Source: an uncultured Nitrospiraceae bacterium (GTDB taxonomy: Bacteria > Hydrogenedentota > Hydrogenedentia > Hydrogenedentales > SLHB01). From it: 56,442 nt of DNA. How positions within the stretch are numbered: the first letter of the stretch is position 1; each line of letters begins with the position of its first letter. The stretch is taken from positions 1 to 56,442 of the forward strand of contig CAZFOG010000002.1 of assembly GCA_964520685.1 (NCBI GenBank), written 5' to 3'. Shown here piece after piece: positions 22,847 to 41,266 of this stretch. Position numbers and translations under genes: made by a program. Under the pieces are notes generated by a model that was not told the DNA's origin, did not search any database, and saw nothing but the letters and a program-made list of their open reading frames with translations.

Positions 22847-23362
22847 CTATCCTAATGCAATACTTTCAGCTAACTGTTTCAAGCCGATCTTTTCCACCAG
22901 TTGCAATTCTTCAGTGGAAAGACCGTTGAAATCAAATTTGTTGATGTTGATGTTTGTATGAGTAGTCTCACTCTTGGATACATCGGCCCATAACTGCGGC
23001 TGACGTGCACTCAGCCATTTATTTGCACTCCATGGATCTGGAATTACATGCTTGGTAACGATCGTGCGAACCACCTGCCCCTTGATCACATGCAACACCT
23101 CCTCCTGAAAAGAGAATCCAACAGCACGCTTATACAGGGAAGCCGCCACCTTGGAATCTGCAATGATTTTTCCTTCATCCAACGCCTCCCGAAGTTCAGG
23201 CTTACTCTCCACCCACTGAAGAAACTTATCCTTGGACACTCCAAATGCACGTGCAATATCCTTGTCTTCAGCTCCAAGCAGAGCCATTTCATATGCAATT
23301 AATGGAAACCCACTCCTCCACAACACAGGCCGACCAGCTTTCCCATTACCAGACCGTTTCAT
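22847..23362 (-). CDS. terS: terminase small subunit
   Basis: About 171 aa. N-terminal HTH-like GRPVLWRSGFPLIAYEMALLGAEDKDIARAFGVSKDKFLQWV and ..ADSKVAASLYKRAVG.., typical of phage TerS. The track start at 23368 is a TTG, so I use the ATG at 23362. Confidence 0.75.
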   Translation of the reverse strand: MKRSGNGKAGRPVLWRSGFPLIAYEMALLGAEDKDIARAFGVSKDKFLQWVESKPELREALDEGKIIADSKVAASLYKRAVGFSFQEEVLHVIKGQVVRTIVTKHVIPDPWSANKWLSARQPQLWADVSKSETTHTNININKFDFNGLSTEELQLVEKIGLKQLAESIALG

Positions 23363-23367
23363 CTCCA

Positions 23368-23395
23368 ATTAAATTTACTATTGCGTAAATTTAAT
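23368..23395. promoter_or_regulatory. perfect 11-bp inverted repeat abutting the terS start
   Basis: ATTAAATTTAC (23368-23378), spacer tattgc, GTAAATTTAAT (23385-23395). Lies 5 nt upstream of the terS ATG on the minus strand. Could be an operator or a 5'-UTR hairpin. Confidence 0.5.
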
Positions 23396-23514
23396 GGATT
23401 TAAACCATATAACAATCCCACTTGAACAATTATTTTTTCGTAATTGAATCCACCTCTTCCCCCATCAACACTCCATTAGGACAATTCCCATCGAACTGAA
23501 CCCAAAAAAATTTT

Positions 23515-23542
23515 TTGACTTTATATAATACTCTATTATATA
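23515..23542 (+). promoter_or_regulatory. candidate sigma70-like promoter firing rightward into the non-coding region
   Basis: TTGACT (23515-23520), 16-nt spacer, TATATA (23537-23542), preceded by A7T7. Host promoter rules are unknown, so this is tentative. Confidence 0.3.
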
Positions 23543-23560
23543 TCAACAAATAAAAACACA

Positions 23561-23650
23561 TGAACATGGAGATAAAGAATCCATCTCCAAAAATCCCCCT
23601 ATAATACCAGAGTAATTACCCTATTACTATCCTATGGATATGAACATGGA
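23561..23650. repeat. direct repeat TGAACATGGA, two copies exactly 80 bp apart
   Basis: Copies at 23561-23570 and 23641-23650, with a related ATGAACTGGA at 23661-23670. Located in the AT-rich segment upstream of terS. Confidence 0.6.
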
Positions 23651-23699
23651 TATTTACCATATGAACTGGAAACCTGTTGCAAAAACCACTTGAAAACCA

Positions 23700-23985
23700 A
23701 ATTTGGACTGCAGATTTTTTACGGGTGCATTCCGGCAGTCCCAGAATTTGAATCTGCCGCTGATGGGGGGTGGGGTGACCGTCTCCCAGTCTATCCACCA
23801 CTTGCAGCCAGTCCAGGGACCTTCCACGGTACGTGGCCTGTCCGACACTTGCAATTGGAAAAGCTAAATATATGCACCCCGTCCAGTGGCGTTGTTTCGG
23901 CGGTAAATCAGTCCAGGCCAACGCACATGCATGCGGTGCACGCCACTCTATTCCGGTATCCTATCCCAGGCCTGCTCCCAGGTTA
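23700..23985. other. GC-rich, helix-rich non-coding segment (structured RNA or DNA element of unknown type)
   Basis: Composition jumps relative to the flanks. Nested complementarities: GCAGATT 23710-16 with AATCTGC 23751-57, ACGGGTGCAT 23721-30 with ATGCACCCCGT 23872-82, AGTGGCG 23885-91 with CGCCACT 23941-47, and local palindrome CCACGGTACGTGG 23824-36. Overlapping ORFs on both strands have non-protein-like composition. Confidence 0.4.
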
Positions 23986-23988
23986 TTT

Positions 23989-24330
23989 CAACGCCGTATC
24001 CGATATCAACGCCGTATCCGTTCTCCTATATCCCGTTATTACCTCCGTTCGGTATATAACGGTATCGGTCTATTATCCCGTTTTAGCCTATTTTCGTGCC
24101 GTTTCCGGCAGGATAATACCGTTTTACCTATATACCTATAACCTATCCTATTTTTACGCCGTTATCCCAGTTGACGGGAGGGGAGTTCAACGCTGTTTTT
24201 AACCTATTTTACCGATATTCAGTGATTTTATTAGCGTTATAACTATCTGATATTTAAGCTTATATATACGTTTATAATATTTTTTATAAAATACCGTTAT
24301 AATCTTAAATATTTCGTATATTAGTCCTGA
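23989..24330. repeat. iteron-like CCGT[TA] repeat cluster followed by an AT-rich tract (candidate replication origin or protein-binding array)
   Basis: CAACGCCGTATCCG at 23989-24002 and 24007-24020. TATCCCGTT at 24029-37 and 24074-82. Same-strand CCGT[TA] cores at 23994, 24012, 24018, 24033, 24045, 24078, 24099, 24119, 24159 and 24294. The stretch 24190-24330 is strongly AT-rich. Confidence 0.5.
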
Positions 24331-24339
24331 GAAAGAGAG

Positions 24340-24877
24340 TATAAACGAAAAAGAGGTAAAACGCTGAAAATCAGAGAGATAGCACTCCGGCACCGCAGTC
24401 AAGCCTAACACTGCAACCGACTGAAAATAGGATATTCCGCCACCTGTCGTGAGATAGTGCTTTTGCGGAGGAAAGTAAAACAGCGGATTCTTTGAAAAAA
24501 CTGGGATTATAGCACGGTCCACCGCTCCGCAGTCCAACTCCTCTGGCTTTTCCGGTTAATTACCGGACGGTTTAAGGGATGGATGTGATAAGGTATCCGG
24601 GAGATGCAACCGGATACCGCTAAAACGGGCAAGTAAGCTATTAACTCACCGCTCCAACGCTGTAGGCTACAAGGTAAAGAAATAATCCACTTGAGCTGTT
24701 GATAACGCTGGGACGGGAGTGCGGAAATAACTAATAATACCGCAGCCGGATATCTTTTCAAGTTATCCGGTATTGGTGCCGAACGCCGGGAGTAATAACA
24801 AGGTAATTTTGGCTGAAAGGTTTTTATCTTTTTTAAGGTATCTGAAGAGGTATGCGCAAGTGTACCTCTTTTTTTTT
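24340..24877 (+). ncRNA. candidate ~0.5-kb structured non-coding RNA ending at a strong intrinsic terminator (boundaries approximate, class unknown)
   Basis: No plus-strand ORF of 60 aa or more. Stable hairpins: GGTATCCGG 24592-600 with CCGGATACC 24610-18, and CCGGATA 24746-52 with TATCCGG 24764-70. Long-range GCACTCC 24382-88 with GGAGTGC 24716-22. Repeated CACCGCTCC and CCGCAG boxes. Terminator at 24845-24877. Confidence 0.4.
24845..24877 (+). terminator. Rho-independent terminator
   Basis: AGAGGTA (24846-52), 10-nt loop, TACCTCT (24863-69), then T9. Followed by GCCCGTCC. Confidence 0.8.
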
Positions 24878-24935
24878 GCCCGTCCTGTTATACCTTATTA
24901 ACTCCCGTATTACAGGAGGTAATATTTACCTTCAT

Positions 24936-24949
24936 AACTAAAAACCTTA
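24936..24949 (+). promoter_or_regulatory. early-gene leader box AACTAAAAACCTTA
   Basis: Box ends 5 nt before ATG 24955. Confidence 0.6.
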
Positions 24950-24954
24950 TTAAG

Positions 24955-25317
24955 ATGAGCAAAACCGTTATTAATTCGAACGAAACTGCCGCTGAGAGCA
25001 GTGTAAACGTATCCGAAACTGCCGCCACTCCGGTTAAAAACAAACCGGCAGCTGGGAAAAAACCGGCAAAAAAGGAAAAGAAACTGCTGAGCACGTTCGA
25101 ATTTGCCCGCGCAGGCGCAGTCGCGTTGGCAATCCGCCAGCTGAAACTCTCCGGTCACCCTGAGAAGCTTGCCGCAGCTAGTGAAAAAGTTATCGCACTG
25201 GCAGACAAAATTTACTCCGAAAAAACCGGAGCACCCTCAAACCTGAAGGAAAGCAAGTGGAATTTCCTTTATGCCACACGATTCCTGAAGTACTATGAAC
25301 AGCCGGCAAAGAAGTAA
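24955..25317 (+). CDS. early hypothetical protein (Lys/Ala-rich N-terminal tail)
   Basis: 120 aa. Leader box upstream and two terminators downstream, so it looks like a monocistronic unit. Confidence 0.7.
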   Translation: MSKTVINSNETAAESSVNVSETAATPVKNKPAAGKKPAKKEKKLLSTFEFARAGAVALAIRQLKLSGHPEKLAAASEKVIALADKIYSEKTGAPSNLKESKWNFLYATRFLKYYEQPAKK

Positions 25318-25325
25318 GCCAACTG

Positions 25326-25355
25326 AAAAAAGAGTCCAAGTGACTCTTTTTTTTT
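25326..25355 (+). terminator. Rho-independent terminator (A-tract/T-tract, potentially bidirectional)
   Basis: AAGAGTC (25330-36), loop caagt, GACTCTT (25342-48), then T-run to 25355. Followed by GCCCGTCC, as at 24878. Confidence 0.8.
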
Positions 25356-25375
25356 GCCCGTCCGTCATCAAAATT

Positions 25376-25402
25376 AGAGATCATCCGGTGATCTCTTTTT
25401 TT
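25376..25402 (+). terminator. second Rho-independent terminator
   Basis: AGAGATCA (25376-83), loop tccgg, TGATCTCT (25389-96), then T-run. Confidence 0.75.
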
Positions 25403-25548
25403 ATATCGGATGCCTAAATATTTAGCAGTTTTACAGACAAAGATACCGAATATTAAAGAATTCAACAGACCAGTATTCAAAGACATCCGTACACTCACTC
25501 ATAGAAGGGAGTGCAATGGGTGAGTGAATACGTAAATCCGCTTTGTCC

Positions 25549-25562
25549 AATTTTCGGGTGAA
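25549..25562 (+). promoter_or_regulatory. conserved box AATTTTCGGGTGAA (copy 1)
   Basis: The exact 14-mer is also present at 30051-30064 and 36902-36915, always in intergenic DNA upstream of a plus-strand transcription unit. Confidence 0.55.
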
Positions 25563-25575
25563 TTTTCTTTCATTT

Positions 25576-25598
25576 TTATTGTATAACTAAAAACCTTA
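25576..25598 (+). promoter_or_regulatory. promoter-like TTATTGTATAAC fused to leader box AACTAAAAACCTTA
   Basis: TTATTGTATAAC (25576-87) is a variant of the TTATTTGTATAATA 14-mer. The box 25585-98 ends 5 nt before ATG 25604. Confidence 0.55.
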
Positions 25599-25603
25599 TC
25601 AAG

Positions 25604-25906
25604 ATGAAAAATCAATTCCGTTTCTCAGCTCCGATTGTTCATACAATCGAAATTCAACGTCGTCCTACCACTTTCCGGGTTTCATTCCCGGACCGTAACC
25701 TGGTAGTATCTATGATTGTTAGGGGAACGCATGTCCATATCAGCGATGCGGCTATCGTTGATGATGGAAAAGGTCGCCGACAGTTGAAATGGAACGGGAC
25801 CGTAAACAAACTTTTCAAAGCTTTCCCTTCATCTGACGGATTACAGGCTGCTTTCCGCCGGTACGTCAAGTGCTGGTATTGCTCTGAGGCCGAAATGGTA
25901 ATCTGA
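25604..25906 (+). CDS. early hypothetical protein
   Basis: 100-aa ORF bounded by the promoter/leader box and the terminator at 25920-25950. Confidence 0.65.
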   Translation: MKNQFRFSAPIVHTIEIQRRPTTFRVSFPDRNLVVSMIVRGTHVHISDAAIVDDGKGRRQLKWNGTVNKLFKAFPSSDGLQAAFRRYVKCWYCSEAEMVI

Positions 25907-25919
25907 TACCGCTAAAATG

Positions 25920-25950
25920 AACCGCTCCTATGCGTGGGAGCGGTTTTTTT
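25920..25950 (+). terminator. Rho-independent terminator
   Basis: AACCGCTCC (25920-28), 8-nt loop, GGAGCGGTT (25937-45), then T-run. Confidence 0.8.
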
Positions 25951-26006
25951 ATTGCCTTAAATAAAGAGATTCTGAGTTTATAATTGATACTAAAAAAGAT
26001 GAACAG

Positions 26007-26234
26007 ATGAATGATTTTAAAAACAAGTATGGATGGTCAGTGTATGACTTTCTTATGCTATTGGATGAATTTGTAGAAATACCTTCATCCGTGTACTCCC
26101 AGGCGAAAGCCTCCTCTTCAACCACGAAAAACAATCAAAGGTTGAAATTCCTTTTTCAGCAATGGACAAAAGGAAAGTACGACAATCATGTTGATGTCCT
26201 GTATAAGGAGATTTTGAAAACCTTAAACAAATGA
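26007..26234 (+). CDS. early hypothetical protein
   Basis: 75 aa. Degenerate leader ACTAAAAAAG, then a 3-codon mini-ORF (ATG 25999 .. TGA 26010) overlapping the start. Confidence 0.55.
   Translation: MNDFKNKYGWSVYDFLMLLDEFVEIPSSVYSQAKASSSTTKNNQRLKFLFQQWTKGKYDNHVDVLYKEILKTLNK
26216..26225 (+). promoter_or_regulatory. leader box variant GAAAACCTTA
   Basis: Ends 5 nt before ATG 26231. Lies inside the 3' end of the preceding ORF. Confidence 0.5.
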
Positions 26235-26443
26235 AAAAGCCTAAAATCTTTGTTAGCACGCCACAAAAGGAATGGCCACTGGACGACATCGAAACTTATA
26301 TGGACCTCCATGGTATCCATAGAATGGACGTTGCTATCAAAAAGCTCAACCGGGAAAACCGGGCAAGCAAGAATCCTGTCCGGTTCTTCATTCGGATGGT
26401 AAAATTGTTATTCCCGATTTTCGGGTGGTTTTTACTTAAATAG
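26231..26443 (+). CDS. early hypothetical protein
   Basis: 70 aa. ATGA overlap with the previous ORF. Hydrophobic C-terminus (LLFPIFGWFLL). Confidence 0.55.
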   Translation: MKKPKIFVSTPQKEWPLDDIETYMDLHGIHRMDVAIKKLNRENRASKNPVRFFIRMVKLLFPIFGWFLLK

Positions 26444-26451
26444 TAACAGCA

Positions 26452-26655
26452 ATGGCAAACGTTGAAATCATTACTAGCAAGTTCCCACTTGGAAACACGG
26501 TTGTTGAAATCCGTTCCGAGTGCAATCGTGCCCGTCGGGAAATGATGGACACAGAGGTCCGTATTGGAGGTGAAATTATCTGCATTATCAGCGGAGATAA
26601 TATTGACGAATTCACATTTGAACTCCGTAAACTTATTGATAAGTTCCGCATTTAA
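26452..26655 (+). CDS. early hypothetical protein
   Basis: 67-aa ORF in the same direction as its neighbours. No motif. Confidence 0.5.
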   Translation: MANVEIITSKFPLGNTVVEIRSECNRARREMMDTEVRIGGEIICIISGDNIDEFTFELRKLIDKFRI

Positions 26656-26660
26656 TTCAT

Positions 26661-26669
26661 TAAACCTTA
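26661..26669 (+). promoter_or_regulatory. leader box variant TAAACCTTA
   Basis: Ends 5 nt before ATG 26675. Confidence 0.5.
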
Positions 26670-26674
26670 AAGAA

Positions 26675-26842
26675 ATGAAAAAATCAATTGATTTGCTTGT
26701 TTTCATGTCGATTCTGGTAATGGCTGGCTGTACTATGGGTCTCCTATTGAGACCGACTGTTACGCTGGCATACGGCACTATCATTTCCATGATCGTCATG
26801 CTTATTCTGCTTTTCGTTTATTACCGGATTGTCCGGCGGTAA
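26675..26842 (+). CDS. small membrane protein / putative lipoprotein
   Basis: 55 aa from the internal ATG of track ORF 26564-26842. MKKSIDLLVFMSILVMAGC has a lipobox-like MAGC, followed by a second TM (GTIISMIVMLILLFVYY). Confidence 0.55.
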   Translation: MKKSIDLLVFMSILVMAGCTMGLLLRPTVTLAYGTIISMIVMLILLFVYYRIVRR

Positions 26843-26847
26843 ATTTA

Positions 26848-26892
26848 GCCTCAAATGGAGTACAAGAGGGTTCGACTCCCTCTTGAGGCTCA
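26848..26892 (+). ncRNA. tRNA-like acceptor-stem/T-arm minihelix (not a complete tRNA)
   Basis: GCCTCAA-atggagtacaa-GAGGG-TTCGACT-CCCTC-TTGAGGC-tca. It has a 7-bp acceptor-like stem and a 5-bp T-stem with a canonical 7-nt T-loop. Only 11 nt replace the D arm, anticodon arm and variable loop. Starts 5 nt after the stop of ORF 26675-26842. Confidence 0.5.
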
Positions 26893-26925
26893 AAGGTCAT
26901 TAACCAGATGATCATTTTATGTTAA

Positions 26926-26938
26926 ATTAAAAACCTTA
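26926..26938 (+). promoter_or_regulatory. leader box ATTAAAAACCTTA
   Basis: Ends 5 nt before a start-stop mini-ORF ATGTAA (26944-26949). The real ATG is at 26952. Confidence 0.55.
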
Positions 26939-26951
26939 AACAAATGTAAAA

Positions 26952-27212
26952 ATGGAAAATGAAGAAAAGATTCAAGACTTGAAAAGCTTTTTAGAGCAAC
27001 ACAAGGCTCTAGGAGCTTTTTTGAACGGCGTATGCAGGAGATCATCATCTCTTGCTAAAAAAGAAGATCCAATCCACGCTTTCTGCTCAGAAAGAACAGA
27101 TTATACGGATTGGACCACCGACTGCTTTACCTGGAGTGCAACTTACCCAGGTAGAGCATTTTGGGAGAACATTCACCGTGATTGGAATGTTTTCTGTGCA
27201 ATGAATTATTAA
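26952..27212 (+). CDS. early hypothetical protein
   Basis: 86-aa ORF after the leader box and the start-stop element. Confidence 0.55.
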   Translation: MENEEKIQDLKSFLEQHKALGAFLNGVCRRSSSLAKKEDPIHAFCSERTDYTDWTTDCFTWSATYPGRAFWENIHRDWNVFCAMNY

Positions 27213-27218
27213 TTTATC

Positions 27219-27232
27219 AACTAAAAACCTTA
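27219..27232 (+). promoter_or_regulatory. leader box AACTAAAAACCTTA
   Basis: Ends 6 nt before ATG 27239. Confidence 0.6.
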
Positions 27233-27238
27233 AAAAAG

Positions 27239-28828
27239 ATGGCAAAACTTACAACAAACGTTAGAGAAGTGATAGCAGAAGCACTTTCCGAACAAGAAAG
27301 AAAAGCTTTACACGGATATCGTGGTAGCATCATTGTGAATACTATTCAACGTGGTAGGATTCGTCTTGACTGTATATTTTCCTTCTACAATGAAGGAATA
27401 TATGCATGTCAGAATGAATTGGACGGAGCTGAGTGTAATGTGAAATGGGGACAAAGGTACTCATGGAGACTTTCAAATGAAACTTTGATCTTTATACCCC
27501 CTTCTACGCAAGTCAAGATCAATGTAATGAGCAGGAGACTTCTCCAAACCTTAACAGATCCAGAATTTGTTAAGGAACACAGAATGGAACTGTGTTTACA
27601 GAGAATTTTGAATATGACGAAAGATGTAGAATTCACATCAAATAAAACGTTGAATGGACACCACTTTGATCTTAGAAAAGGGGAAATCAGTTATTATCCC
27701 AATAATGTTCCTCTTGCTATGGCGATGAACGGCACATGGGCACGTGAAGGTAGAGTCACTTTTAAAGTAGGAAAGTTCATCAAGATGTTACTCGAAACGG
27801 AATCTGCGTTCATAACGGCAGATGGAGATTTACTTGATATTTCCAATCACGAAGATGCTAAACTGATTACATCATTCTTTGAAATAAAGAGTGGATTAGT
27901 AAAAAGTACGGCATACCAGGATTGTATAAAGGTCAGTGATGATCCTTCTGCTATTTATGGTATGGAAACCGCTGAAAATAGTGGCACTTTAGCCTCTAGC
28001 TGTATGCGTCCTGAAAGTGGACACGGTTGCCACGAAGGAATGGATTGGTATTCGATGATAGGAACAAAGATAGTATACATAGCAAATCCAAAAACGGATG
28101 AGCTATGCGCTAGGGCATTGCTCTGGGAGAATTGCTATTTTGTTCAGAAAGTCGATGACCGCCGTATTCGTAAAGTTGGTGCTCCATTTACTTTTTTGGA
28201 TCGCATATACGGAGATGAAGCTTCCATGGCTCTAATGAAAGAATGGGCTAAAGAACAGGGCTATTTCTACAAGTCAGAGCAAAGCAGTCGTTCCAACACT
28301 TTGATTTCCCCCACTGGAGAGGTTGTATCTAAACAATTCATATGGGATAAGGAAATCACTGAAGTGTTTGAATATTCTCCTTATATGGACACTTTCGTTT
28401 ACTTATATGGAGAATTGAAAAGATTGGGAACAGGAGCAGCATCTGATACGAGTGGATACGATTTGACCGACAGTAGTGGGGACGCCTTTGATGATATACT
28501 AATTTGTCCTAATTGCGGAAAAATCGCACCTGGCCTGCGCGCAATTGGCCCTGAAGATTCAGACCTGACAGGTTCCTTTGGATGTACCTTTTGTGCTGTG
28601 GAAACTGCAAATTCAGAAAATTCAGGAACAATCTGGCTCTTCAAAAGCGATGTGCTAGAGTATTATGATTTGAAAGGTATTTTCCGTATCATTCCACTTT
28701 CAGAAGCAAAGGATTTGAATATCGTATCTGCTTATTATCGTGGTAGAGGACTAGTGAACGTGGAAATAGTGAAACCTGAACCCATGGTATATCAGGAAGA
28801 TGAAGAATTAATTTTGGAGGAGGTTTAA
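27239..28828 (+). CDS. large early protein of unknown function with C-terminal Cys4 zinc-ribbon-like motif
   Basis: About 529 aa from the ATG behind the leader box (the track ORF starts at 27182). Conserved-looking core ..ASSCMRPESGHGCHEGMDWY...ARALLWEN...FLDRIYGDE.. and CPNCGK..(24 aa)..CTFC. No family assignment possible by eye. Confidence 0.7.
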   Translation: MAKLTTNVREVIAEALSEQERKALHGYRGSIIVNTIQRGRIRLDCIFSFYNEGIYACQNELDGAECNVKWGQRYSWRLSNETLIFIPPSTQVKINVMSRRLLQTLTDPEFVKEHRMELCLQRILNMTKDVEFTSNKTLNGHHFDLRKGEISYYPNNVPLAMAMNGTWAREGRVTFKVGKFIKMLLETESAFITADGDLLDISNHEDAKLITSFFEIKSGLVKSTAYQDCIKVSDDPSAIYGMETAENSGTLASSCMRPESGHGCHEGMDWYSMIGTKIVYIANPKTDELCARALLWENCYFVQKVDDRRIRKVGAPFTFLDRIYGDEASMALMKEWAKEQGYFYKSEQSSRSNTLISPTGEVVSKQFIWDKEITEVFEYSPYMDTFVYLYGELKRLGTGAASDTSGYDLTDSSGDAFDDILICPNCGKIAPGLRAIGPEDSDLTGSFGCTFCAVETANSENSGTIWLFKSDVLEYYDLKGIFRIIPLSEAKDLNIVSAYYRGRGLVNVEIVKPEPMVYQEDEELILEEV

Positions 28829-28830
28829 CA

Positions 28831-29805
28831 ATGGAAACAACATTATTAAAGCAACTATACAAGATTAATTCAAAATCTTGTTTCGAAGATGATATGCAAG
28901 AATTCATAATGTCTTACGCAAAGCAAAGAGAATGTGTAATTGATATGGATAAGAGAGGCAACATTCTCGTTACTTATGGAAAGGCAGACGCGTATCCTTG
29001 TATATGTGCTCATATGGATGAGGTGCACCATGCTATTTTAGACAAGGAAGTGATAGAATTTGAAGATTTCATGTTCTGTTTCTCTCCGTCAAAAATGGGG
29101 GTTGTTGGATGTGGAGCGGATGACAAAAACGGCATTTTCATAGCTTTGAAAGCGTTGGATGTGCTTCCAGCTGTTAAACTACTCTTCACTGTAGAAGAGG
29201 AAATTGGAGCTGTAGGAGCTTACAACGTGAATATAAAGAAATGGTTAAAAAATGTACGATATGTCATCCAATGTGATCGTCGTGGAAGCGATGATTTCAT
29301 AACTTCCATTTCAGGAATAAAACTGGCCAGTAAGGAATTCAAGAAGGATGCTGGAACTATTCTCAAAGGGTATGGATTCCACGAATCTACTGGGATGCTT
29401 ACAGATGTGATGGCATTGAAAGAGGGAGGATTAAATGTTTCATGTTGTAATCTTTCCTGTGGATATTATGCCCCTCATTCGGACCGTGAAGTCACATACT
29501 TACCTCACTTGGAAAAAACCTTTAATGCCGTAATGGAAATATGTCTTACACTTACAAAGACATATCAACATAACTATGAAAAACCGGTGTACAAAAAGTA
29601 TTCAGGTGCTGCGACCACCTCAGCAAATGCGCATGGTAATAGAAATTACCTTAATATCGCACGTTCTGAAGGTGGTAGGATTCCTTTAAATCCGGAATCT
29701 ATGATTTGTCGGGATTGTTTAAGACTGAATTGTGATTTATGTGTGTATTCAGTTCCCTCTCATACCAATTACTCCAAAGATTGGGATAATAGGTATTATG
29801 ATTAG
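28831..29805 (+). CDS. M20/M28/M42-type zinc metallopeptidase-like protein
   Basis: 324 aa. CAHMDEVHH, GCGADDKNGIF and FTVEEEIGAVGA match the His/Asp, Asp and Glu-Glu metal-ligand and catalytic blocks of co-catalytic aminopeptidases. Cys-rich tail (CRDCLRLNCDLC). Confidence 0.65.
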   Translation: METTLLKQLYKINSKSCFEDDMQEFIMSYAKQRECVIDMDKRGNILVTYGKADAYPCICAHMDEVHHAILDKEVIEFEDFMFCFSPSKMGVVGCGADDKNGIFIALKALDVLPAVKLLFTVEEEIGAVGAYNVNIKKWLKNVRYVIQCDRRGSDDFITSISGIKLASKEFKKDAGTILKGYGFHESTGMLTDVMALKEGGLNVSCCNLSCGYYAPHSDREVTYLPHLEKTFNAVMEICLTLTKTYQHNYEKPVYKKYSGAATTSANAHGNRNYLNIARSEGGRIPLNPESMICRDCLRLNCDLCVYSVPSHTNYSKDWDNRYYD

Positions 29806-29889
29806 ATAAAAATCTACATTGAGTTTGCCGAATGGAAAGTTTTTACTCTCCATTCCAATAGGCGAACTATACATTGATATAACACGGTA

Positions 29890-29929
29890 GCAAGTCCCTT
29901 CTGTGAAGGGGTTTGCTATTGCCTTTTTT
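29890..29929 (+). terminator. terminator-like hairpin after the peptidase gene
   Basis: GCAAGTCCCTT (29890-900), loop ctgtg, AAGGGGTTTGC (29906-16) forms an 11-bp stem with two G-U pairs. A T5 run follows after 9 nt. Confidence 0.5.
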
Positions 29930-30050
29930 ACACATTGAAGTTGAATCTCAATAATTCAACCGGGGGCTTACTATATCCTCACTTTAATATTCAACACTAC
30001 ATAGTAAAAAGAGAAACGAGGTACTATCATCTGTATAAATTGCATTATAT

Positions 30051-30064
30051 AATTTTCGGGTGAA
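30051..30064 (+). promoter_or_regulatory. conserved box AATTTTCGGGTGAA (copy 2)
   Basis: Exact 14-mer. In this copy it can form the hairpin AATTTTC-gggt-GAAAATT. Confidence 0.55.
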
Positions 30065-30150
30065 AATTTCGTTGAAATAAAAAGCCTTCTAAAAACTTGA
30101 CAATGACTTAATTATAAATATATTTTTATTTATAAAATATTTTATCTATC

Positions 30151-30163
30151 TTTAAAAACCTTA
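30151..30163 (+). promoter_or_regulatory. leader box TTTAAAAACCTTA
   Basis: Ends 4 nt before the 2-codon mini-ORF ATG CCG TGA (30168-30176), which overlaps the GTG start at 30173. Confidence 0.55.
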
Positions 30164-30172
30164 TAAAATGCC

Positions 30173-31804
30173 GTGAACGTGAAAACAGCGACACTCGTAA
30201 CAGACAAGAAGGGTAATGATCTGATTAAGATACTCTTCACTTTCGAAATTCCTACATTGGAGAAAGTGAGAACCATATCTGGTCGGAAATATTTCCCTGA
30301 CGGAAAGTACTGGACCGCTCCACTTCATGTAGGTACATTGCAAAACCTAAAAGATTGGGAGTTTGAATTAGATGAAGCTCTTTTGAAAATACTTCATCAG
30401 GTTCAGGAAAAACAAATCCAATTAGAGGTAAAGAATGTAAAGATTCCGGGATTGAAACGTGAATTGTTTCCCTTTCAAAAGAAAGGGGTATCCTTCATCG
30501 AACAATGCGGAGGAAGAACATTAGTTGCCGACGAAATGGGTTTGGGGAAAACTGTTCAGGCTTTGGGATGGATTCAGTTACATCCTCATAAGCGTCCGGT
30601 AATCATTACAGTTCCTGCTTCTATCAAGCTTAAATGGAAACAGGAAGTACTAAACTGGTTACCAAATCCAAAGGTGGAGGTACTATCAGGTACTCATCCT
30701 TATAGGATCAAAGGAAATATCGTAATAATCAACTACGATATTGTATTTTATTGGTTGGAACAATTAAAACTATTAAATCCACAGGTCTTAATTACTGATG
30801 AATGTCATTATTACAAGAGTAATAAGGCTAAGAGAACGAAGGCAATTAAGATGTTGAGTAAAGGAATCCCGCATGTGATAGCATTGAGTGGGACTCCTAT
30901 CGTAAACCGGCCTATTGAGGCGTATAATGCTATCAGAATTATTTCTCCCTTATTGTTTCCAGATGCCTGGAAGTTTGCACAGCGTTACTGCGGAGCCTAT
31001 TATGATGGATTTGGATGGAACTTCACCGGAGCGACTCATACAAAGGAGTTACACGAGAGATTGACATCTACCATAATGATAAGAAGGTTGAAATCGGAAG
31101 TTCTTACTGAACTACCTCCGAAGATGTATTCATATGTTCCTTTAACGTTGGATAATGAAGCTGAATACAGATTCGCTAAAAACCACTTTATTCAATTCAT
31201 TTCATCCACTCGTGGTCAATCCGCAGCCCATCGTGCCCGCAACGCTGAAATAATTACTCGGATAGCAACACTGAGACAGGTTGCTGTTAAGGGAAAGTTA
31301 GCCCAGGTAATAGGATGGATCGAAGATTATTTTGAAAACAACGAAAAGTTAGTCTTATTTGCTATTCATAAGTTTGCCATAGATGCTATCATGGAAGCTT
31401 TCAAAAAAGTAGCAGTTAAGATAGATGGTTCAGTTCCAATGGAAAAGAGACATGACGCTGTTCAGAAGTTTCAAACTGATCCAAAGGTTCGATTATTTGT
31501 AGGAAACATTCAGGCTGCTGGCGTTGGATTGGATCTGACTGCGGCCTCAAACGTATGCTTCCTTGAATTACCCTGGACTCCAGGTGAATTAGCTCAGGCC
31601 GAAGACCGATGTCATCGTATCGGACAGAAAGATAATGTAACTGTGCATTATCTTCTAGCCACGGATACGATTGAATATGAAATGGCGGAATTACTAGATG
31701 CGAAAAAGAAAGTACTCAACGCCGTTCTAGATGGACGGGATACCCCTCAAGAATCTTTATTAACCGAATTAATAAACAAATATTATGACGACAGAACAGA
31801 TTAA
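30173..31804 (+). CDS. SNF2-family DNA-dependent ATPase/helicase
   Basis: 543 aa. LVADEMGLGKTVQAL (motif I), LITDECHYYKS (motif II), LSGTPIVNRP (motif III), and GVGLDLTAASNVCFLELPWTPGELAQAEDRCHRIGQK (motifs V/VI). GTG start according to the track. Confidence 0.9.
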   Translation: MNVKTATLVTDKKGNDLIKILFTFEIPTLEKVRTISGRKYFPDGKYWTAPLHVGTLQNLKDWEFELDEALLKILHQVQEKQIQLEVKNVKIPGLKRELFPFQKKGVSFIEQCGGRTLVADEMGLGKTVQALGWIQLHPHKRPVIITVPASIKLKWKQEVLNWLPNPKVEVLSGTHPYRIKGNIVIINYDIVFYWLEQLKLLNPQVLITDECHYYKSNKAKRTKAIKMLSKGIPHVIALSGTPIVNRPIEAYNAIRIISPLLFPDAWKFAQRYCGAYYDGFGWNFTGATHTKELHERLTSTIMIRRLKSEVLTELPPKMYSYVPLTLDNEAEYRFAKNHFIQFISSTRGQSAAHRARNAEIITRIATLRQVAVKGKLAQVIGWIEDYFENNEKLVLFAIHKFAIDAIMEAFKKVAVKIDGSVPMEKRHDAVQKFQTDPKVRLFVGNIQAAGVGLDLTAASNVCFLELPWTPGELAQAEDRCHRIGQKDNVTVHYLLATDTIEYEMAELLDAKKKVLNAVLDGRDTPQESLLTELINKYYDDRTD

Positions 31805-36979: not shown

Positions 36980-37570
36980 ATGATTAGCGAAAAAGCATTG
37001 AAAGCTGCAGCAGCTGAAGTAAATGAATTGGGAGTTGATCCCCCAATTGACCTGAAAGCAGGTGTAAAAAAAATTACCGCTGGCCTGAAGGAGGCGATTG
37101 CGGATGTACTCGAAAAGGATGATGAATTTTCGAAGGAAACCGAAAAAGTTCTGATTGAACTTGGTTGGAATAAAGAGGAAGAGGAAGAGGAAGAGGAAGA
37201 GCAGGAAGAAGATGACGATGATGAAGAGGAAAAGGAAGAAAAGCAGAAAGTAGCAGAAAAGATTCATCAGAAGAATATTGCTAGCAAAGCTCCTATCATC
37301 AAAGAAGACAAGGGAGGAAAAGAAAAACCGGCAGCTCCGAAGGAAAAAAGGACTCCACCTCCCAGGAAGACCGGATCATACACTCGTATTGATGCTGTCT
37401 GCGATGCCCTGAAAACAAAGAAACCCAAGACTGTTAAGGACTGGGTAAAAGCAACCAACGAAGTCTACATTGAAAAGGGAGGTTCCGCCAACGACAGCGA
37501 AAGCTCTATGATGATCAAGTATGCTTCCAAGGTAATGACGCACTTTGATGTAAAATTCCCTACGGAATAA
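36980..37570 (+). CDS. hypothetical protein with poly-acidic tract
   Basis: 196 aa. Central NKEEEEEEEEEQEEDDDDEEEKEEK followed by a Lys/Pro-rich segment. Confidence 0.65.
   Translation: MISEKALKAAAAEVNELGVDPPIDLKAGVKKITAGLKEAIADVLEKDDEFSKETEKVLIELGWNKEEEEEEEEEQEEDDDDEEEKEEKQKVAEKIHQKNIASKAPIIKEDKGGKEKPAAPKEKRTPPPRKTGSYTRIDAVCDALKTKKPKTVKDWVKATNEVYIEKGGSANDSESSMMIKYASKVMTHFDVKFPTE
37175..37245 (+). repeat. GAA/GAG-rich low-complexity coding tract
   Basis: (GAGGAA)n-like run encoding the poly-Glu/Asp stretch. Generates the spurious minus-strand ORF 36971-37267. Confidence 0.8.
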
Positions 37571-38625
37571 TGTCGGAGGCGTTGTTAAAAAACAGTGTGA
37601 CGATTCGAGGGGACAGCCTGTACTGTCCTCTCGCATTGTCCATTGATAGTTACGGAAACTGTCTTACAGACTGCTGGCACTGTTACTTACGCAGATTAAA
37701 TCATACCTGGGGACAGGATTTAAAACCGGCAGATGTTTCTCTACTTGAGAAAAAGTTGGTTTCTGGACTTTCTAACAAGCATCCTAAAACTCCTTTAGCA
37801 TGGGCTTTATCTCAACGAAAAACCATTCGTTGGGGGAATAAGACTGATCCATTCCAAAAGGCAGAGTTGGAGTATCGGGTAGCTCGTCCGATATTTAACA
37901 TTCTTACAGAATTAGAATGGTCTTTCGTGATACAGACCCGGTTCACCTCTGTGCTTGAAGAATATGAACGGTATATATTGAGAGCCCATGGTAGGGGATT
38001 GATTACAATCATGCCTGTGATTTCTCCCGGATTGGAGAAGGATTGGTCCATTTTTGAACGGGAAAGAACTACGCCTCCGGAGGACAGATTGAGATCAATT
38101 CAGCGTTGGAAAGGTTTGAAAATACCTGTTGGAGTAAATGGAGAGCCTTTTATTCCAGGATTCCATACTGAAGAAGATTTTGAGAATGCTTTGAAGCTTT
38201 TGAAGGCGTACGGAATAAACCGATACAACACCTATAATTTCCATTTTAACGCTTTTGTAGCCCGACGACTTAATGATATTGGAATCGATATCGAGAGTAT
38301 TTGGTATTACAACCGGGATAAGCAGTGGAAAAAGATTTTGAGAAATTTATTGGACCTAGCGAAGAAATACGACATTATACTTGGATGCCCGGACTTTGTT
38401 AATTCAGGATTATCTTGGGTGGAACGGGCAAATACGTGCTGTGGAGTGGACGTTCCCAATCCATGTACTTTTAACACTCACCATTTTAAAAGACTGCATC
38501 AGAGCGGTAAATCTCCAGAGGAAATATTTAAACTCTCTTTTGATGGAACTGGAGATGAGAATATGGGAAGATCTATTATTGAAGGAAGCACGAAAGATTT
38601 CTACACTTTAAAAGATATCAAATGA
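37570..38625 (+). CDS. radical SAM protein 1 (SPL/COG1533-like)
   Basis: 351 aa. The CxxxCxxC cluster motif is present as NCLTDCWHCY near the N-terminus. Overall it resembles the spore-photoproduct-lyase/DNA-photolyase-like radical-SAM family. ATG overlaps the previous stop. Confidence 0.75.
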   Translation: MSEALLKNSVTIRGDSLYCPLALSIDSYGNCLTDCWHCYLRRLNHTWGQDLKPADVSLLEKKLVSGLSNKHPKTPLAWALSQRKTIRWGNKTDPFQKAELEYRVARPIFNILTELEWSFVIQTRFTSVLEEYERYILRAHGRGLITIMPVISPGLEKDWSIFERERTTPPEDRLRSIQRWKGLKIPVGVNGEPFIPGFHTEEDFENALKLLKAYGINRYNTYNFHFNAFVARRLNDIGIDIESIWYYNRDKQWKKILRNLLDLAKKYDIILGCPDFVNSGLSWVERANTCCGVDVPNPCTFNTHHFKRLHQSGKSPEEIFKLSFDGTGDENMGRSIIEGSTKDFYTLKDIK

Positions 38626-39440
38626 CTCCTATTGAAGAACACTATAATGTCTTAGTAAAACGGGATGATCTATGCTTTCCTCCCCCTGCCCCTCCATTCT
38701 CCAAATGTAGAGGTATAATCGAACACCTCCGTAAGTTGAAACGGGAAGGAATAGAATATGTTGGATATACTGAAACGTCCATTAGCATGGCTGGTTGGGG
38801 AGTAGCTTGGGCCTGTAAGGAATTGGGACTAAAAGCGGTTCTATTTGATCCTCAGTACAAGCAAACTCCCGAAGTTTTAAAATACCATCGTCAGCAATGG
38901 AAACAGTTTGATCCAATCATAGTTCCGATTCAGGCTGGGATGGCTTCTGTAAACGTACATATTGCTGCTAATATTTTACGGAGGACCTACAAGAACTCTA
39001 TTATGCTTCCTTTAGGGCTACCTTTTGAGGAAACAATGGAGGCTACCCGTGTAGAAACTATTGAAACTATGCAGGCTTTATCTTCTGAAAATATCAAATC
39101 AGTAGTAGTAAGCGTGGGTAGCGGTACAATATACGCTGGAATCTTCCGGGGGTTACACGATTTAGGTGCCCCCGTTACTTTATATGGAATCCTAACTCGA
39201 AGTAGTGATCTGAAAAGAAAGCGAACGTCCATTCAAAACAAGGCTGGTATATTTGAATTCGGATTATCTGATAGCCCTGTAAAAATGAAACTGATAGACA
39301 AAGATTGGGAGTACACTCAACGGAGTTATCAGGAATGTCCTTTCCCATGCCATCCGTATTACGATCTGAAAGCTTGGGAATGGTTAGTAAAAATACAATA
39401 TATTCCAGAGCGAATATTGTTTTGGAATATAGGAAAATAA
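38622..39440 (+). CDS. PLP-dependent fold-type-II enzyme (ACC deaminase / D-cysteine desulfhydrase-like)
   Basis: 272 aa. LVKRDDL...FSKCRG (candidate PLP lysine) and the Gly-rich VVSVGSGTIYAGI loop. ATGA overlap with radical-SAM gene 1. Confidence 0.65.
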   Translation: MTPIEEHYNVLVKRDDLCFPPPAPPFSKCRGIIEHLRKLKREGIEYVGYTETSISMAGWGVAWACKELGLKAVLFDPQYKQTPEVLKYHRQQWKQFDPIIVPIQAGMASVNVHIAANILRRTYKNSIMLPLGLPFEETMEATRVETIETMQALSSENIKSVVVSVGSGTIYAGIFRGLHDLGAPVTLYGILTRSSDLKRKRTSIQNKAGIFEFGLSDSPVKMKLIDKDWEYTQRSYQECPFPCHPYYDLKAWEWLVKIQYIPERILFWNIGK

Positions 39441-39458
39441 TGTTTAAATTTGTAGAAA

Positions 39459-39860
39459 ATGTCAGGCACGGTTAAACACTTTACTTATGAAGAACTCATA
39501 AAGATTTGGAAGATAAATAACTATGAGGAGAACTACATTCTAAAACCAAATTTACCTTATAGCAAGGGGTGTATTATTCTAGACAGGAAAACCGGAAAAA
39601 TAATTCGTGAATTTGATAAGAATTATGATCTTTTCAAAGCGTTAATGGAAGGGTATATTCCTGGACAACCTTGGAAGATTAAAGGTCTGTTTGGAGAGGA
39701 AACTACTCAATCTACTGGATTGAGAGCTGATATAGCAGTAGATATGTGCATAGACTATGTAAAAGCGTTATTGTTAATGTTACCTACTATGATTGGAGAA
39801 GAATTACCGAAAGACTGGGAGAGCAAATTATATGAAAAACGTAAGAAATTAAGAGGATGA
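39459..39860 (+). CDS. hypothetical protein
   Basis: 133 aa. TAAATTTG (a match to the Bacteroidota -7 consensus TAnnTTTG) lies 7 nt upstream of the ATG. ATGA overlap with the next gene. Confidence 0.6.
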   Translation: MSGTVKHFTYEELIKIWKINNYEENYILKPNLPYSKGCIILDRKTGKIIREFDKNYDLFKALMEGYIPGQPWKIKGLFGEETTQSTGLRADIAVDMCIDYVKALLLMLPTMIGEELPKDWESKLYEKRKKLRG

Positions 39861-41266
39861 ACTATTGGGAATTGAGAAAAATCATAGCAAGAGCTGTGGG
39901 AGGAATGTCTCATCAGTTGAAGGCCACATTCCGTAAGGAGGATCAGGTTAGAGAGAAAGGACGAAAACGGAATTACAGCCAATTCAATTTAGTCCATAAC
40001 GAATGGCGTAAACAGGAACGTTTGTTAAATACGGAGGAAATAAATTCATTTCTTGAAATCTCCGTTAGGGCATCTGCCTGTCCCATGCCTTTCAATATGG
40101 ACATCTGGGATGGGTTAGTTTGTCCGTTTGCTTGTTCGTATTGTTACGCCAATGCCTTTAGGGCTTCTTTATATACGGCCTTCTTTGATAACAGTAAGAC
40201 AATGGGGTTCCGACATTGCAATCCTACGTATTACAAGGAAGAGATGGATAAAATGGCGAAGTATCGGGTTATGTCTTTTGATGAAAAGAGGAGTTTAACA
40301 GGTATCAACAAAGCTTTTGCTTTAGAGATTCCAGTTCGTATGGGAATCCGTTTTGAAGATTTTCTCAAGAAGGAAGGACGGGAGCATATCAGTTTAGAGA
40401 TGCTTCAATACCTAAAAGATATTTCATATCCGGTAATGATAAACAGTAAGGCGGCACTTCCGGCTGAAGATGAATACTTGAGAGCTTTAGCTGACAATAA
40501 GGCTGGGACGGCTATTCACATTACTCTTATATCTAGTAGTGATGAAGTGTTAAAGAAACTGGAACCAGGTGCTCCTACATATTCAGAAAGAATACAAGCT
40601 ATGAGTGAATTATCTGCTGCAGGAGTTCGTGTAGTGGCTCGTATTGAACCTTATTTGTTCTTACTTACGGACGATCCTGATGAGGTTGAAAAGTACATGG
40701 AAGATGTATGGAACGCCGGAGTGCGACATATTACTTTTGATACCTACTCTTATACTGCCCAAAATCAAGGAATACGTCAAAGTTTTATAAATGTAGGATA
40801 CGACTTTGACCGCATTTTCTTAGCAGGATGTGATAGTCAACCACTGGGTTCTCTACTACTAGGCAAGTTTATGGACTTATTCCGGGAAAGAGGATTCAGT
40901 TGTAGTACGTTCGATATGGGGAATGTTCCAACTAATGATCAGTCTGTTTGTTGTGAAGTCGGGGATTGGTTTAAGGGAGGCTTCAGTTACGGATGTACTG
41001 TAATGGCTGCTAGATTTGTAAAGGAGCGGATTGGATTGAAAACCAGTTGGAAGGATTATGTAAAGTGGGTGGAGGAACATGGGGGATTCCTTACTGAAGA
41101 CCTCAAGGAGGAAGTAAAAAGACTTTGGAATCTGGAAGGTAATGTCGCTTACAGTCATCGCTGGGCAGCAGGATTAACCGCAGTAGGACTGGATGAAGAT
41201 GGAACTATTTGGACATACGTAAAAGGTGAAGATTATAGGGAGAAACTTTTAAATGAAATTATATGA
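39857..41266 (+). CDS. radical SAM protein 2 (SPL/COG1533-like)
   Basis: 469 aa. CxxxCxxC present as VCPFACSYCYANAF. Distant paralogue of ORF 37570-38625. Confidence 0.75.
   Translation: MNYWELRKIIARAVGGMSHQLKATFRKEDQVREKGRKRNYSQFNLVHNEWRKQERLLNTEEINSFLEISVRASACPMPFNMDIWDGLVCPFACSYCYANAFRASLYTAFFDNSKTMGFRHCNPTYYKEEMDKMAKYRVMSFDEKRSLTGINKAFALEIPVRMGIRFEDFLKKEGREHISLEMLQYLKDISYPVMINSKAALPAEDEYLRALADNKAGTAIHITLISSSDEVLKKLEPGAPTYSERIQAMSELSAAGVRVVARIEPYLFLLTDDPDEVEKYMEDVWNAGVRHITFDTYSYTAQNQGIRQSFINVGYDFDRIFLAGCDSQPLGSLLLGKFMDLFRERGFSCSTFDMGNVPTNDQSVCCEVGDWFKGGFSYGCTVMAARFVKERIGLKTSWKDYVKWVEEHGGFLTEDLKEEVKRLWNLEGNVAYSHRWAAGLTAVGLDEDGTIWTYVKGEDYREKLLNEII

Follow-up and report, generated by a model that had tools for sequence, protein, structure and literature searches.

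A conserved, covarying tRNA-like minihelix between genes of a group of phages

Introduction

The t-elements of plant mitochondria, on which Hanic-Joyce et al. reportedly worked in 1990, are, as far as the analogy carries, the closest described counterparts of the RNA element that we analyse here, a tRNA-like minihelix at positions 26848-26890 of the forward strand of contig CAZFOG010000002.1. The whole stretch of DNA analysed (56,442 nucleotides (nt), hereafter the window) represents all or most of the genome of a phage. The t-elements are tRNA-like structures whose borders coincide with mRNA ends, and which are cleaved by RNase P and RNase Z and CCA-tailed, without being aminoacylated (PMC1920247, PMC11658184); they are recognised by the motif GGTTCRANYCC, as defined by Forner et al. 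2007 (PMC1920247). Like them, the phage element combines an acceptor stem with a T-arm motif, lies beside coding genes, probably within longer transcripts, and encodes no CCA. It differs in size (43-52 nt across its family, whereas t-elements have roughly the size of a tRNA and form non-canonical cloverleaves whose homology to particular tRNA genes can be recognised), in having no anticodon arm, in residing in a phage, and in being accompanied by a second conserved hairpin; its processing is only proposed here.

Structures that resemble tRNA and attract the enzymes of tRNA processing have been described in plant mitochondria, in herpesviruses and plant RNA viruses, and among the long non-coding RNAs of mammals. 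In mascRNA and MEN-beta (MALAT1, NEAT1) and in the vtRNA-miRNA units of the herpesvirus MHV68, a tRNA-like fold on the 3' side of a longer RNA directs cuts by RNase P and RNase Z, by which the end of the neighbouring RNA is made and a CCA-tailed RNA is released. Hairpins follow the tRNA-like unit in MHV68, as a hairpin does in the phage, but all of these systems are eukaryotic or herpesviral, possess a cloverleaf with a reduced anticodon arm and show no sequence relationship to the element. The tRNA-like domain of transfer-messenger RNA (tmRNA) likewise consists of an acceptor, a T-arm and a GG-containing D-loop substitute without D stem, and has no anticodon; unlike the phage element, it carries G3-U70 for alanyl-tRNA synthetase, a CCA that is either encoded or added, and a long helix that leads into pseudoknots and the reading frame of the tag. 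Synthetic acceptor/T minihelices of 12 base pairs (bp) are recognised by RNase P, RNase Z, CCA-adding enzymes and some aminoacyl-tRNA synthetases, but these are laboratory constructs with a continuous 5' strand. Phage RNAs matured by host RNase P exist as well (the P1/P7 C4 RNA precursor and phi80 M3 RNA); to our knowledge, the known phage substrates of this enzyme have no canonical T-loop, no split-strand design and no conserved multi-lineage family. Finally, the attachment sites (attP) of temperate phages that contain tRNA fragments share the T-arm and the 3' acceptor strand with the element, but they need only the 3' part of the tRNA and an integrase, whereas in the phage element the 5' strand covaries and some genomes contain multiple copies.

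The element appears to be of a known kind, a tRNA mimic that borrows tRNA-processing enzymes, but in an apparently new form: a top-half tRNA of 43-52 nt that occurs in nature. The lack of an anticodon arm, the covarying conservation across a phage group and the coupling to a second conserved hairpin also appear to be new, and we found no published account of a conserved, covarying phage family without anticodon arm in the full-text literature, in which subscription journals are not covered. A minimal tRNA is, as far as we know, represented so far only by laboratory constructs and by the hypothetical ancestor of tRNA; were the top-half reading true, the element would be a natural, selected instance of it.

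Structure of the element

A preliminary description, made from the sequence alone, had reported a perfect acceptor-like stem and a canonical T-arm at this position, without D or anticodon arms. The parts of the element and of the hairpin that follows it, all on the + strand, are the following.

26847: A(-1), able to pair with U26890; RNAalifold pairs it in 7 of 7 sequences
26848-26854: acceptor-like 5' strand GCCTCAA, read directly; T26851 pairs with A26886
26855-26865: linker ATGGAGTACAA, 11 nt, in place of D arm, anticodon arm and variable region
26857-26858: GG of the linker, within the (U)AUGG or GG conserved in the family
26866-26882: T-arm, with a 5-bp stem GAGGG/CCCTC and a 7-nt loop TTCGACT (T54 T55 C56 R57 A58), closed by G53-C61
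26883-26889: acceptor-like 3' strand TTGAGGC, with no spacer to the T stem
26890-26894: discriminator-like U, then the trailer CAAA
26895-26913: hairpin 2, with a 6-bp stem GGTCAT/ATGATC and a 7-nt loop TAACCAG
26914-26919: T-rich tract ATTTTA, directly 3' of hairpin 2

Direct reading confirmed the sequence, the 7-bp acceptor stem, the 5-bp T stem, the TTCGACT loop and the 11-nt linker, and also the start of the element, at 26848, 5 nt past the stop codon of a small open reading frame (ORF; TAA at 26840-26842). The next start codon is 62 nt downstream. While every part named in the preliminary description stood, the GG of the linker, hairpin 2 and the tRNA-Glu that occupies the same slot in relatives (see below) had been overlooked.

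The minihelix has 43 nt (26848-26890), with a helix of acceptor and T-arm of 12 bp. The CAA that precedes the T stem repeats the CAA of the acceptor 5' strand, so that the junction can slide between 7/5, 6/6 and 4/8 bp; the helix on the 3' strand has 12 bp in every register, and 13 bp if A26847-U26890 is included. The minimum free energy (MFE) structure of the excised RNA is the minihelix. The 7-bp acceptor on a 5-bp T stem, the TTCRANY T-loop and the pair G53-C61 are as in tRNA, and GGTTCGACTCC, at 26869-26879, agrees with the T-arm motif GGTTCRANYCC of t-elements and is joined to a 7-bp acceptor stem. A canonical tRNA gene was rejected, as D and anticodon arms are missing and the acceptor 5' strand is separated from the T stem by only 11 nt. 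We also discarded tmRNA, given that pair 3-70 is C-G instead of G3-U70 and that neither ARAGORN nor Rfam finds a tmRNA, and a Shine-Dalgarno function for the GGAG of the linker, which no start codon follows and which is GGUA or GGUU in relatives.

The check with ARAGORN and the Rfam models that had been proposed for the element produced no tRNA or tmRNA call. ARAGORN found no tRNA or tmRNA gene in the window and likewise 0 in 8 loci of the close clade described below; Rfam had no match at gathering thresholds, and its tmRNA models none in a 351-nt region even at an E limit of 10. The sub-threshold scores were 15.6 bits for tRNA-Sec (threshold 47) and 16.3 bits, far below threshold, for the tymovirus tRNA-like element. 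Rfam's best match by E-value, Plastid-ycf2 on the minus strand (29.4 bits against a gathering threshold of 65.7), was rejected as a likeness to a tRNA-fragment-like shape. In order to describe the element by its structure, we used a descriptor consisting of a T-loop TTCRANN, G53-C61, a 5-bp T stem, an abutting 7-bp acceptor and a linker of 4-30 nt. In 200 first-order Markov simulations it gave 0.02 perfect matches per 56 kb, versus exactly one in the window; the core GGGTTCGANTCCC has a chance expectation of 0.16 per window. tRNA finders and Rfam overlook such elements, and the descriptor, together with a covariance model, offers a route to annotate them.

Conservation in the close clade

We searched for close relatives by pattern scans of viral and metagenome contigs and among contigs encoding homologues of a conserved 529-amino-acid (529-aa) protein, whose gene (27239-28828, + strand) is near the element. 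The scan patterns comprised the T-loop, the trailer and the loop of hairpin 2 only, and pairing of the 5' strand was not required. About 20 contigs with the element were obtained. In this close clade the neighbouring 529-aa protein is 44-95% identical, and the sequence downstream of the module diverges. Four variants of the linker occur, and the helix is kept in all of them.

Type A (window, L001, L128, L162, L163): linker ATGGAGTA
Type B (L129, L152, L179): linker CTATGGAGTAACA
Type C (L131, L134): linker CTTTAGGAGTAAT; acceptor GCCCCA…TGGGGC
Type D (eight loci): linker CGCTAGTGGAGCAATAA

In type C, pair 4-69 (T26851-A26886 in the window) has changed from T-A to C-G, a compensatory replacement. 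The type D linker folds as a mini D-arm, GCU-AGUGG-AGC, and in L135 and L199 the linker is a mini hairpin of 3-4 bp with GG in its loop. RNAalifold, run unguided on 7 sequences, predicts the minihelix (13 bp, including A(-1)-U73) and the second hairpin. The 5' border UAGCC is conserved in the clade. The upstream ORF ends in a TAG stop that overlaps the first base or bases of the element in types B and C, as it also does in L199.

Several matches were set aside. A linker pattern (ATGGAGTACAA-N5-TTCGA) scanned against viral contigs has its only true match in L001, the rest being chance matches without stem. Most matches of the metagenome scan belonged to a coding-sequence family (…KFEFIINLKAAKQIGL…) or to unrelated tRNA clusters (L153, L174, L185) and were excluded, as was L025, from a genome scan, a chance match within a gene.

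One locus of the clade, L001, looks recombinant when its positions 6046-6134 are compared with 26843-26931 of the window and 1203-1295 of L129. It shares its upstream gene and minihelix with the window type, at near identity over ~110 nt upstream, and from hairpin 2 onward it is identical to the L129/L135 type, which places the joint inside or just after the element. The conserved module coincides with this mosaic joint, and from this comparison the element appears to act as a recombination joint.

Distant relatives and covariation

More distant relatives were collected with a profile of the 529-aa protein (alignment of 9 sequences), which retrieved 26 viral loci; longer contigs were added later. 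They were searched with the descriptor and with a covariance model, R1, built from 12 members. The neighbouring protein is 20-35% identical in these relatives. Minihelices were found at the following loci.

L196, L197 and L218: two copies each, ~3.2 kb apart
L198, L199 and L212: minihelix
L213 and L214: two each

The stems of these distant minihelices are unrelated in sequence to that of the window, and the T-loop is the same TTCGAnT. T stems in relatives include CGTGG/CCACG, GTAGG/CCTGC, CAGGG/CCCTG, TGGGG/CCCCA and TGGCG/CGTCA. The design is common to all: the T stem abuts the acceptor 3' strand, and the trailer is usually N-CAA(A/T)G. Across the family the linker has 10-25 nt and nearly always contains GG, usually as (U)AUGG, which we take to recall U8-A9…G18-G19 of tRNA. 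Every family element lies between + strand ORFs, 0-30 nt past a stop codon. In L202 (2999-3073) we observed a larger tRNA-like element of 75 nt, in which the acceptor is GCTATG/CATAGC, the T-arm is canonical and the trailer reads A-CAA. ARAGORN makes no call for it; its central hairpin bears a 9-nt loop, CCUCCUUUA, that resembles the anti-Shine-Dalgarno sequence. No minihelix was detectable in the relatives L201, L204-L209, L215 and L216, which have the 529-aa gene.

Over 12 sequences, in an alignment padded in the linker only, 94% of the cells are paired, both sides have changed in 11 of the 12 pairs, and the covariation score is 0.95, versus 0.25 for shuffles and at most 0.23 for slid registers, the 94% and 0.95 being partly circular in that the distant members had been chosen by a structure filter. 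A fairer test used 252 kb of non-redundant relatives filtered on the T-arm alone. This yielded 17 matches, all on the gene strand, 3 of which are real tRNA-Glu genes; in 12 of the 14 non-tRNA matches, an unbroken run of 6 or more acceptor pairs is found within 4-30 nt, and the chance of such pairing is, by our own estimate, roughly 0.1 for each. Hairpin 2 covaries too, with 100% of its stem cells paired and 5 of its 6 pairs changed on both sides. Its loop is TAAYCAG across the close clade and in L199 and L203, in the latter two on unrelated stems.

The preliminary description had asked for conservation with compensatory changes in related phages, and we find it both in the close clade and in distant lineages. 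Since the shape is kept while the sequence changes, the element must be under selection; as judged from these alignments, it belongs to a family of tRNA mimics whose structure is conserved with covariation. The acceptor sequences (GCC.., AGCC.., GGUAGG.., GGGCUU..) and the discriminators (U, A or C) differ between lineages, and therefore there is no common aminoacylation identity.

A tRNA-Glu gene in the same slot and the likeness to tRNA-Thr

Many relatives have a tRNA-Glu(UUC) gene in the early region (L132, L196/L197, L199, L205, L216, L218 and L219), and the gene is kept even in relatives from marine samples at ~20% protein identity. Its coordinates are as follows.

L132: 573-645
L196/L197: 4947-5019
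L199: 1531-1605
L205: 1271-1344
L216: 8146-8219
L218: 7450-7522

In L132, tRNA-Glu(UUC) sits between homologues of the 67-aa and 86-aa genes of the window and so, bar one extra small gene, occupies the slot of the minihelix. The tRNA-Glu genes of L132, L196 and L199, not that of L205, are followed by N-CAA in place of N-CCA; N-CAA(A/T)G follows most family members and most tRNA-Glu genes of the relatives. L199 and L196 hold both the tRNA and minihelices, which shows that the minihelix is not simply a degraded copy of tRNA-Glu.

The stem of the window clade is instead Thr-like (G1-C72, C2-G71, C3-G70, U73). A scan with the 3' half as a pattern (G52 to C72) has exact matches, among those listed, in tRNA-Thr(CGU) of Rhodobacterales and in archaeal tRNA-Thr genes, whose 5' strand is likewise GCCTCA(A/G); these matches bear on the identity of the tRNA and not on that of the host.

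Transcription and proposed function

Metatranscriptome contigs span the element and both flanks at a low k-mer depth (~8-14), and the region is probably transcribed as one unit. Many metatranscriptomes from activated sludge or wastewater contain the type D variant. These read-through contigs are compatible with a precursor and uninformative on processing; no ends, joints or loose CCA were seen at 26848 or 26890 in the assembled contigs, which cannot show that they are absent.

The function that we prefer, which we propose tentatively and would place somewhat short of probable, is that of a cis-acting punctuation signal similar to t-elements, at which host RNase P and RNase Z would cut, perhaps setting free a small RNA with a CCA tail. 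The acceptor/T-arm half is the part of tRNA recognised by RNase P, RNase Z and the CCA-adding enzyme, and acceptor/T-arm minihelices suffice as substrates for the bacterial enzymes. We favour a punctuation signal because the part that has been kept is the part these enzymes recognise, because the element is in sense orientation within an early operon, and because relatives have in the same slot a tRNA whose trailer the element shares. According to this proposal the element would be a top-half tRNA, made of acceptor stem, T-arm and a short, GG-containing substitute for the D-loop, within a polycistronic early transcript of a virulent-type phage whose host is probably a member of the Bacteroidota. 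The RNA would fold co-transcriptionally into a 12-bp coaxial helix capped by the T-loop; the GG could form the elbow, and the decoding part of the tRNA would have been discarded. The cut before G26848 would be made by host RNase P, and the one after U26890 by RNase Z or a different 3' nuclease; a CAA trailer, unlike CCA, is no block to RNase Z. The cuts would set the 3' end of the upstream mRNA a few nt past its stop codon and free the 5' end of the downstream mRNA, which would start with hairpin 2, uncoupling the fates of both mRNAs. The released minihelix of ~43 nt may then receive CCA.

A number of observations weigh against punctuation by cleavage, in addition to the partial circularity of the covariation statistics. 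The RNA contigs read through the element, although they are assembled, cannot show cleavage and may contain DNA. With the flanking mRNA included, the MFE structure favours a rival pairing (GAGU:GCUC plus an 8-bp hairpin), and the possible pairing of A(-1) with U73 is not ideal for RNase P. The length of the helix counted from the T-loop varies among members, from 11 to 13 bp. The window contains one copy only, so that punctuation is not genome-wide here, and the conserved loop of hairpin 2 is left unexplained by it. In L203 (4663-4735) the T-loop is a non-canonical CTCGTGT, with positions 54 and 58 both changed (U…A to C…G); this locus retains both stems, a TTGGAGT linker and a hairpin 2 with the loop TAATCAG, and was missed by both the descriptor and the covariance model.

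An unlikely alternative is that the functional product is the excised minihelix itself, a trans-acting small RNA that would probably be CCA-tailed and possibly aminoacylated. It could serve as a decoy or sponge for host factors acting at the acceptor end or elbow of tRNA, for example acceptor-end toxins and defence effectors, tRNA-modifying enzymes or EF-Tu, or as a cofactor of, for instance, the 529-aa protein. The T-loop and the linker GG are indeed conserved beyond the apparent need of a bare cleavage signal, some genomes contain several diverged copies, the element is located in the early, host-takeover region, and the model of the 529-aa protein bears a weak likeness to the tRNA-acetylating toxins TacT, AtaT and GmvT (see below). 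That likeness is not significant, however, the lineages have no common aminoacylation identity, several relatives with the 529-aa gene lack a detectable minihelix, and the co-occurrence of the two follows from how the relatives were found. The fuller version of the idea, in which RNase P and RNase Z would release free-standing top-half tRNAs of ~43-52 nt that receive CCA, perhaps become charged and act early in trans as decoys or sponges or as substrates or cofactors of the 529-aa protein, seems to us quite improbable. Uncut, the two hairpins could instead form a 3'-end module whose tRNA look is a leftover of its origin, and which would remain on the upstream mRNA as a stable shield from 3' exonucleases, weakly terminate or attenuate transcription, or, through hairpin 2, be an operator serving the promoter or the translation start of the next gene. 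Two stable hairpins directly past a stop codon with a T-rich tract behind them, the covariation of hairpin 2 and its retained UAAYCAG loop, suggestive of a specific binding partner, the resemblance of TATTTTAG to a -7 promoter motif and the reading through of RNA-library contigs all fit such a module. But a plain protective hairpin has no need of a T-loop, of G53-C61, of a 5' strand split by a GG linker or of the trailer shared with tRNA-Glu; no U-run follows the minihelix (the sequence is UCAAAGG), and a terminator scan of 23300-30300 called neither hairpin while finding strong terminators nearby (24844, 25919 and 29885). We consider this explanation rather unlikely.

The two readings in which the element has no function as RNA fare worse. 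A decayed tRNA gene had been among the options first listed, and a neutral remnant of a Thr-like phage tRNA gene that has lost its D and anticodon arms, persisting by its shortness or as a crossover point for module exchange, would account for the resemblance of acceptor and T-arm to tRNA-Thr, for the real tRNA that fills the slot in relatives, for the recombinant joint of L001 and for L202 and L213/L214b, which look intermediate and have larger inserts. However, perfect or near-perfect helices are present in at least seven lineages with unrelated stems, where the neighbouring protein is 20-57% identical, both stems have undergone compensatory changes, and repeated independent deletions would not keep leaving a linker of 10-16 nt with AUGG. 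This conservation of the architecture across deep divergence argues against a decayed gene, which we consider very improbable. The same may be said, more strongly still, of a site acting at the DNA level, be it the core of an attP that stems from a host tRNA gene or some other site of recombination or replication, which we find barely credible. It is true that phage attP sites often hold the 3' part of a tRNA gene and that the 3' half of the element matches tRNA-Thr genes of some organisms. Yet the genome has a virulent-type gene content, and Pfam and/or PHROG searches with 54 ORFs, covering nearly all ORFs of at least 150 aa, gave no tyrosine or serine recombinase in the window, the only recombinase-like match being an IS110-family transposase domain at 48463-49434. 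The attP was rejected because no integrase was found; moreover, the element has a covarying 5' strand, for which an attP has no need, some relatives have at least two copies with different sequences, all copies are oriented with transcription, and there was no Bacteroidota-like host among the at least 119 genome matches listed for the 3' half. The plain attP put forward at the outset as the case that would undo an RNA function is therefore not what we see, and of the roles originally suggested it is the group of processing or stability signal, or substrate of tRNA enzymes, that the covarying conservation supports.

If the element is a processing signal, phages would shape the expression of early operons by tRNA punctuation using host housekeeping RNases alone, ~43 nt would be enough for this in nature, and the element would offer a short RNA-cleavage tag that could be moved between constructs in Bacteroidota and other bacteria. 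If the excised RNA works in trans, it would represent a small phage RNA of a new kind, in which the idea of the acceptor/T-arm half as an independent functional unit could be tested in nature.

Hairpin 2 and a motif ahead of early genes

Hairpin 2 is rich in A+U and followed by a partial T tract; it might terminate transcription weakly, give the downstream RNA a structured 5' end or be bound by a partner. TATTTTAG, which comes after it in types B and D, resembles the Bacteroidota -7 promoter motif TAnnTTTG. Standard sigma-70 promoter matches numbered 10 in the region 23300-30300, versus 18.5 expected.

Further downstream is a second short motif, exact copies of which (AACCTTAAA) precede four consecutive small early genes at 26219, 26663, 26932 and 27226 (+ strand).

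26930-26940, + strand: motif AAAACCTTAAA, 11 nt before the ATG (26952) of the next gene
26219-26227, 26663-26671, 26932-26940 and 27226-27234, + strand: copies of the motif, 4-12 nt before start codons

The motif is present as well in L129 (~1027, ~1294) and L203 (~4747). Allowing one mismatch, the 9-mer is not over-represented in the whole window (31 found, 29 expected), and what stands out is that exact copies are clustered locally, ahead of start codons. In a host group that largely does without Shine-Dalgarno sequences, the motif could be an element specific to the phage, either for translation initiation or promoter-proximal.

The phage and the genes around the element

The gene content is that of a virulent-type phage with its own replication machinery, arranged in two arms.

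468-23368, - strand: terminase, portal, capsid and tail genes
12650-13189, - strand: sigma-factor-like gene of the structural arm
From near 23.7 kb, + strand: long block that opens with many small ORFs without known relatives
Within the + strand block, replication: SNF2 helicase, primase, DnaB-like helicase, split family-A polymerase, clamp and clamp loader
Within the + strand block, recombination and repair: RecA/UvsX, gp32-like protein and SbcCD-like genes
26675-26842, + strand: 55-aa ORF upstream of the element (MKKSIDLLVFMSILVMAGC...), stop TAA at 26840-26842, with a lipobox-like N-terminus (…LVMAGC) and a hydrophobic C-terminal segment
32251-32706, + strand: sigma-factor-like gene of the replication arm
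37570-38625, + strand: second, weak radical-SAM match (E 0.003, under the Pfam cut-off)
38622-39440, + strand: pyridoxal-phosphate (PLP)-dependent enzyme
39857-41266, + strand: radical-SAM enzyme

The presence of two sigma-factor-like genes suggests phage control over which promoters are recognised. Stop-codon recoding was rejected, as the standard code leaves long ORFs intact. No isolated phage gave a DNA match to a 3-kb query, and queries of 83 nt and 32 nt match only short T-arm stretches in isolated phages (E at least 0.02). The closest terminases are those of phages of Croceibacter and Riemerella (36-37% identity), the G+C content of the window is ~39%, and the sequence was found in wastewater, sludge and bioreactor metagenomes; the host is likely a member of the Bacteroidota.

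The 55-aa ORF upstream of the element is conserved as coding sequence in L001, L128 and L129. It is present in types A, B and D, and type C has an unrelated gene instead. It has no Pfam match, and it could encode a small membrane lipoprotein, for example one related to superinfection exclusion or lysis.

As for the 529-aa protein, it had no sequence match in Pfam, PHROG or the PDB, but it is a member of a large family of phage proteins that are uncharacterised. It has the invariant motifs SCMR, RAL.W, DRIYG and P-Y-x-D-T and a C-terminal CxxC…CxxC. We searched for its fold with an AlphaFold model (predicted local distance difference test, pLDDT, of 74), and the strong matches are all uncharacterised phage proteins (BFVD, down to E 4e-17). 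The best PDB matches of the model are the GNAT tRNA-acetylating toxins TacT, AtaT and GmvT, with E-values of 0.01-0.08 and a probability of up to 0.97; these matches are not significant, with none at E<=0.001, a TM-score of ~0.37 and a root-mean-square deviation of 6-8 A. The DRIYG motif, with the helix that comes after it, resembles the GNAT motif RxxGxG/A. Another protein, encoded at 42126, had been described as DUF2156-like and linked speculatively to the element; this ORF has no Pfam match at E<=0.001 or E<=5 and no PHROG match at E<=0.001, and the link is unsupported, as the ORF matches no such family.

Other features of the + strand block deserve mention. Three ORFs with no annotated function come after the radical-SAM/PLP cluster (37570-41266), which may be a pathway for hypermodification of nucleotides or DNA. 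The family-A DNA polymerase is split, with a uracil-DNA-glycosylase-like domain and a 3'-5' exonuclease in one ORF (43906-45156) and the polymerase domain in another (45984-47354); ~830 nt separate them, where a mobile element, a homing endonuclease or an intron could lie. Finally, the ORF at 48463-49434 (+ strand), located between the clamp-loader and recombination genes, contains a transposase domain of the IS110/IS116/IS902 family (Pfam E 4.9e-8) and may be an insertion sequence resident in the genome of a virulent-type phage.

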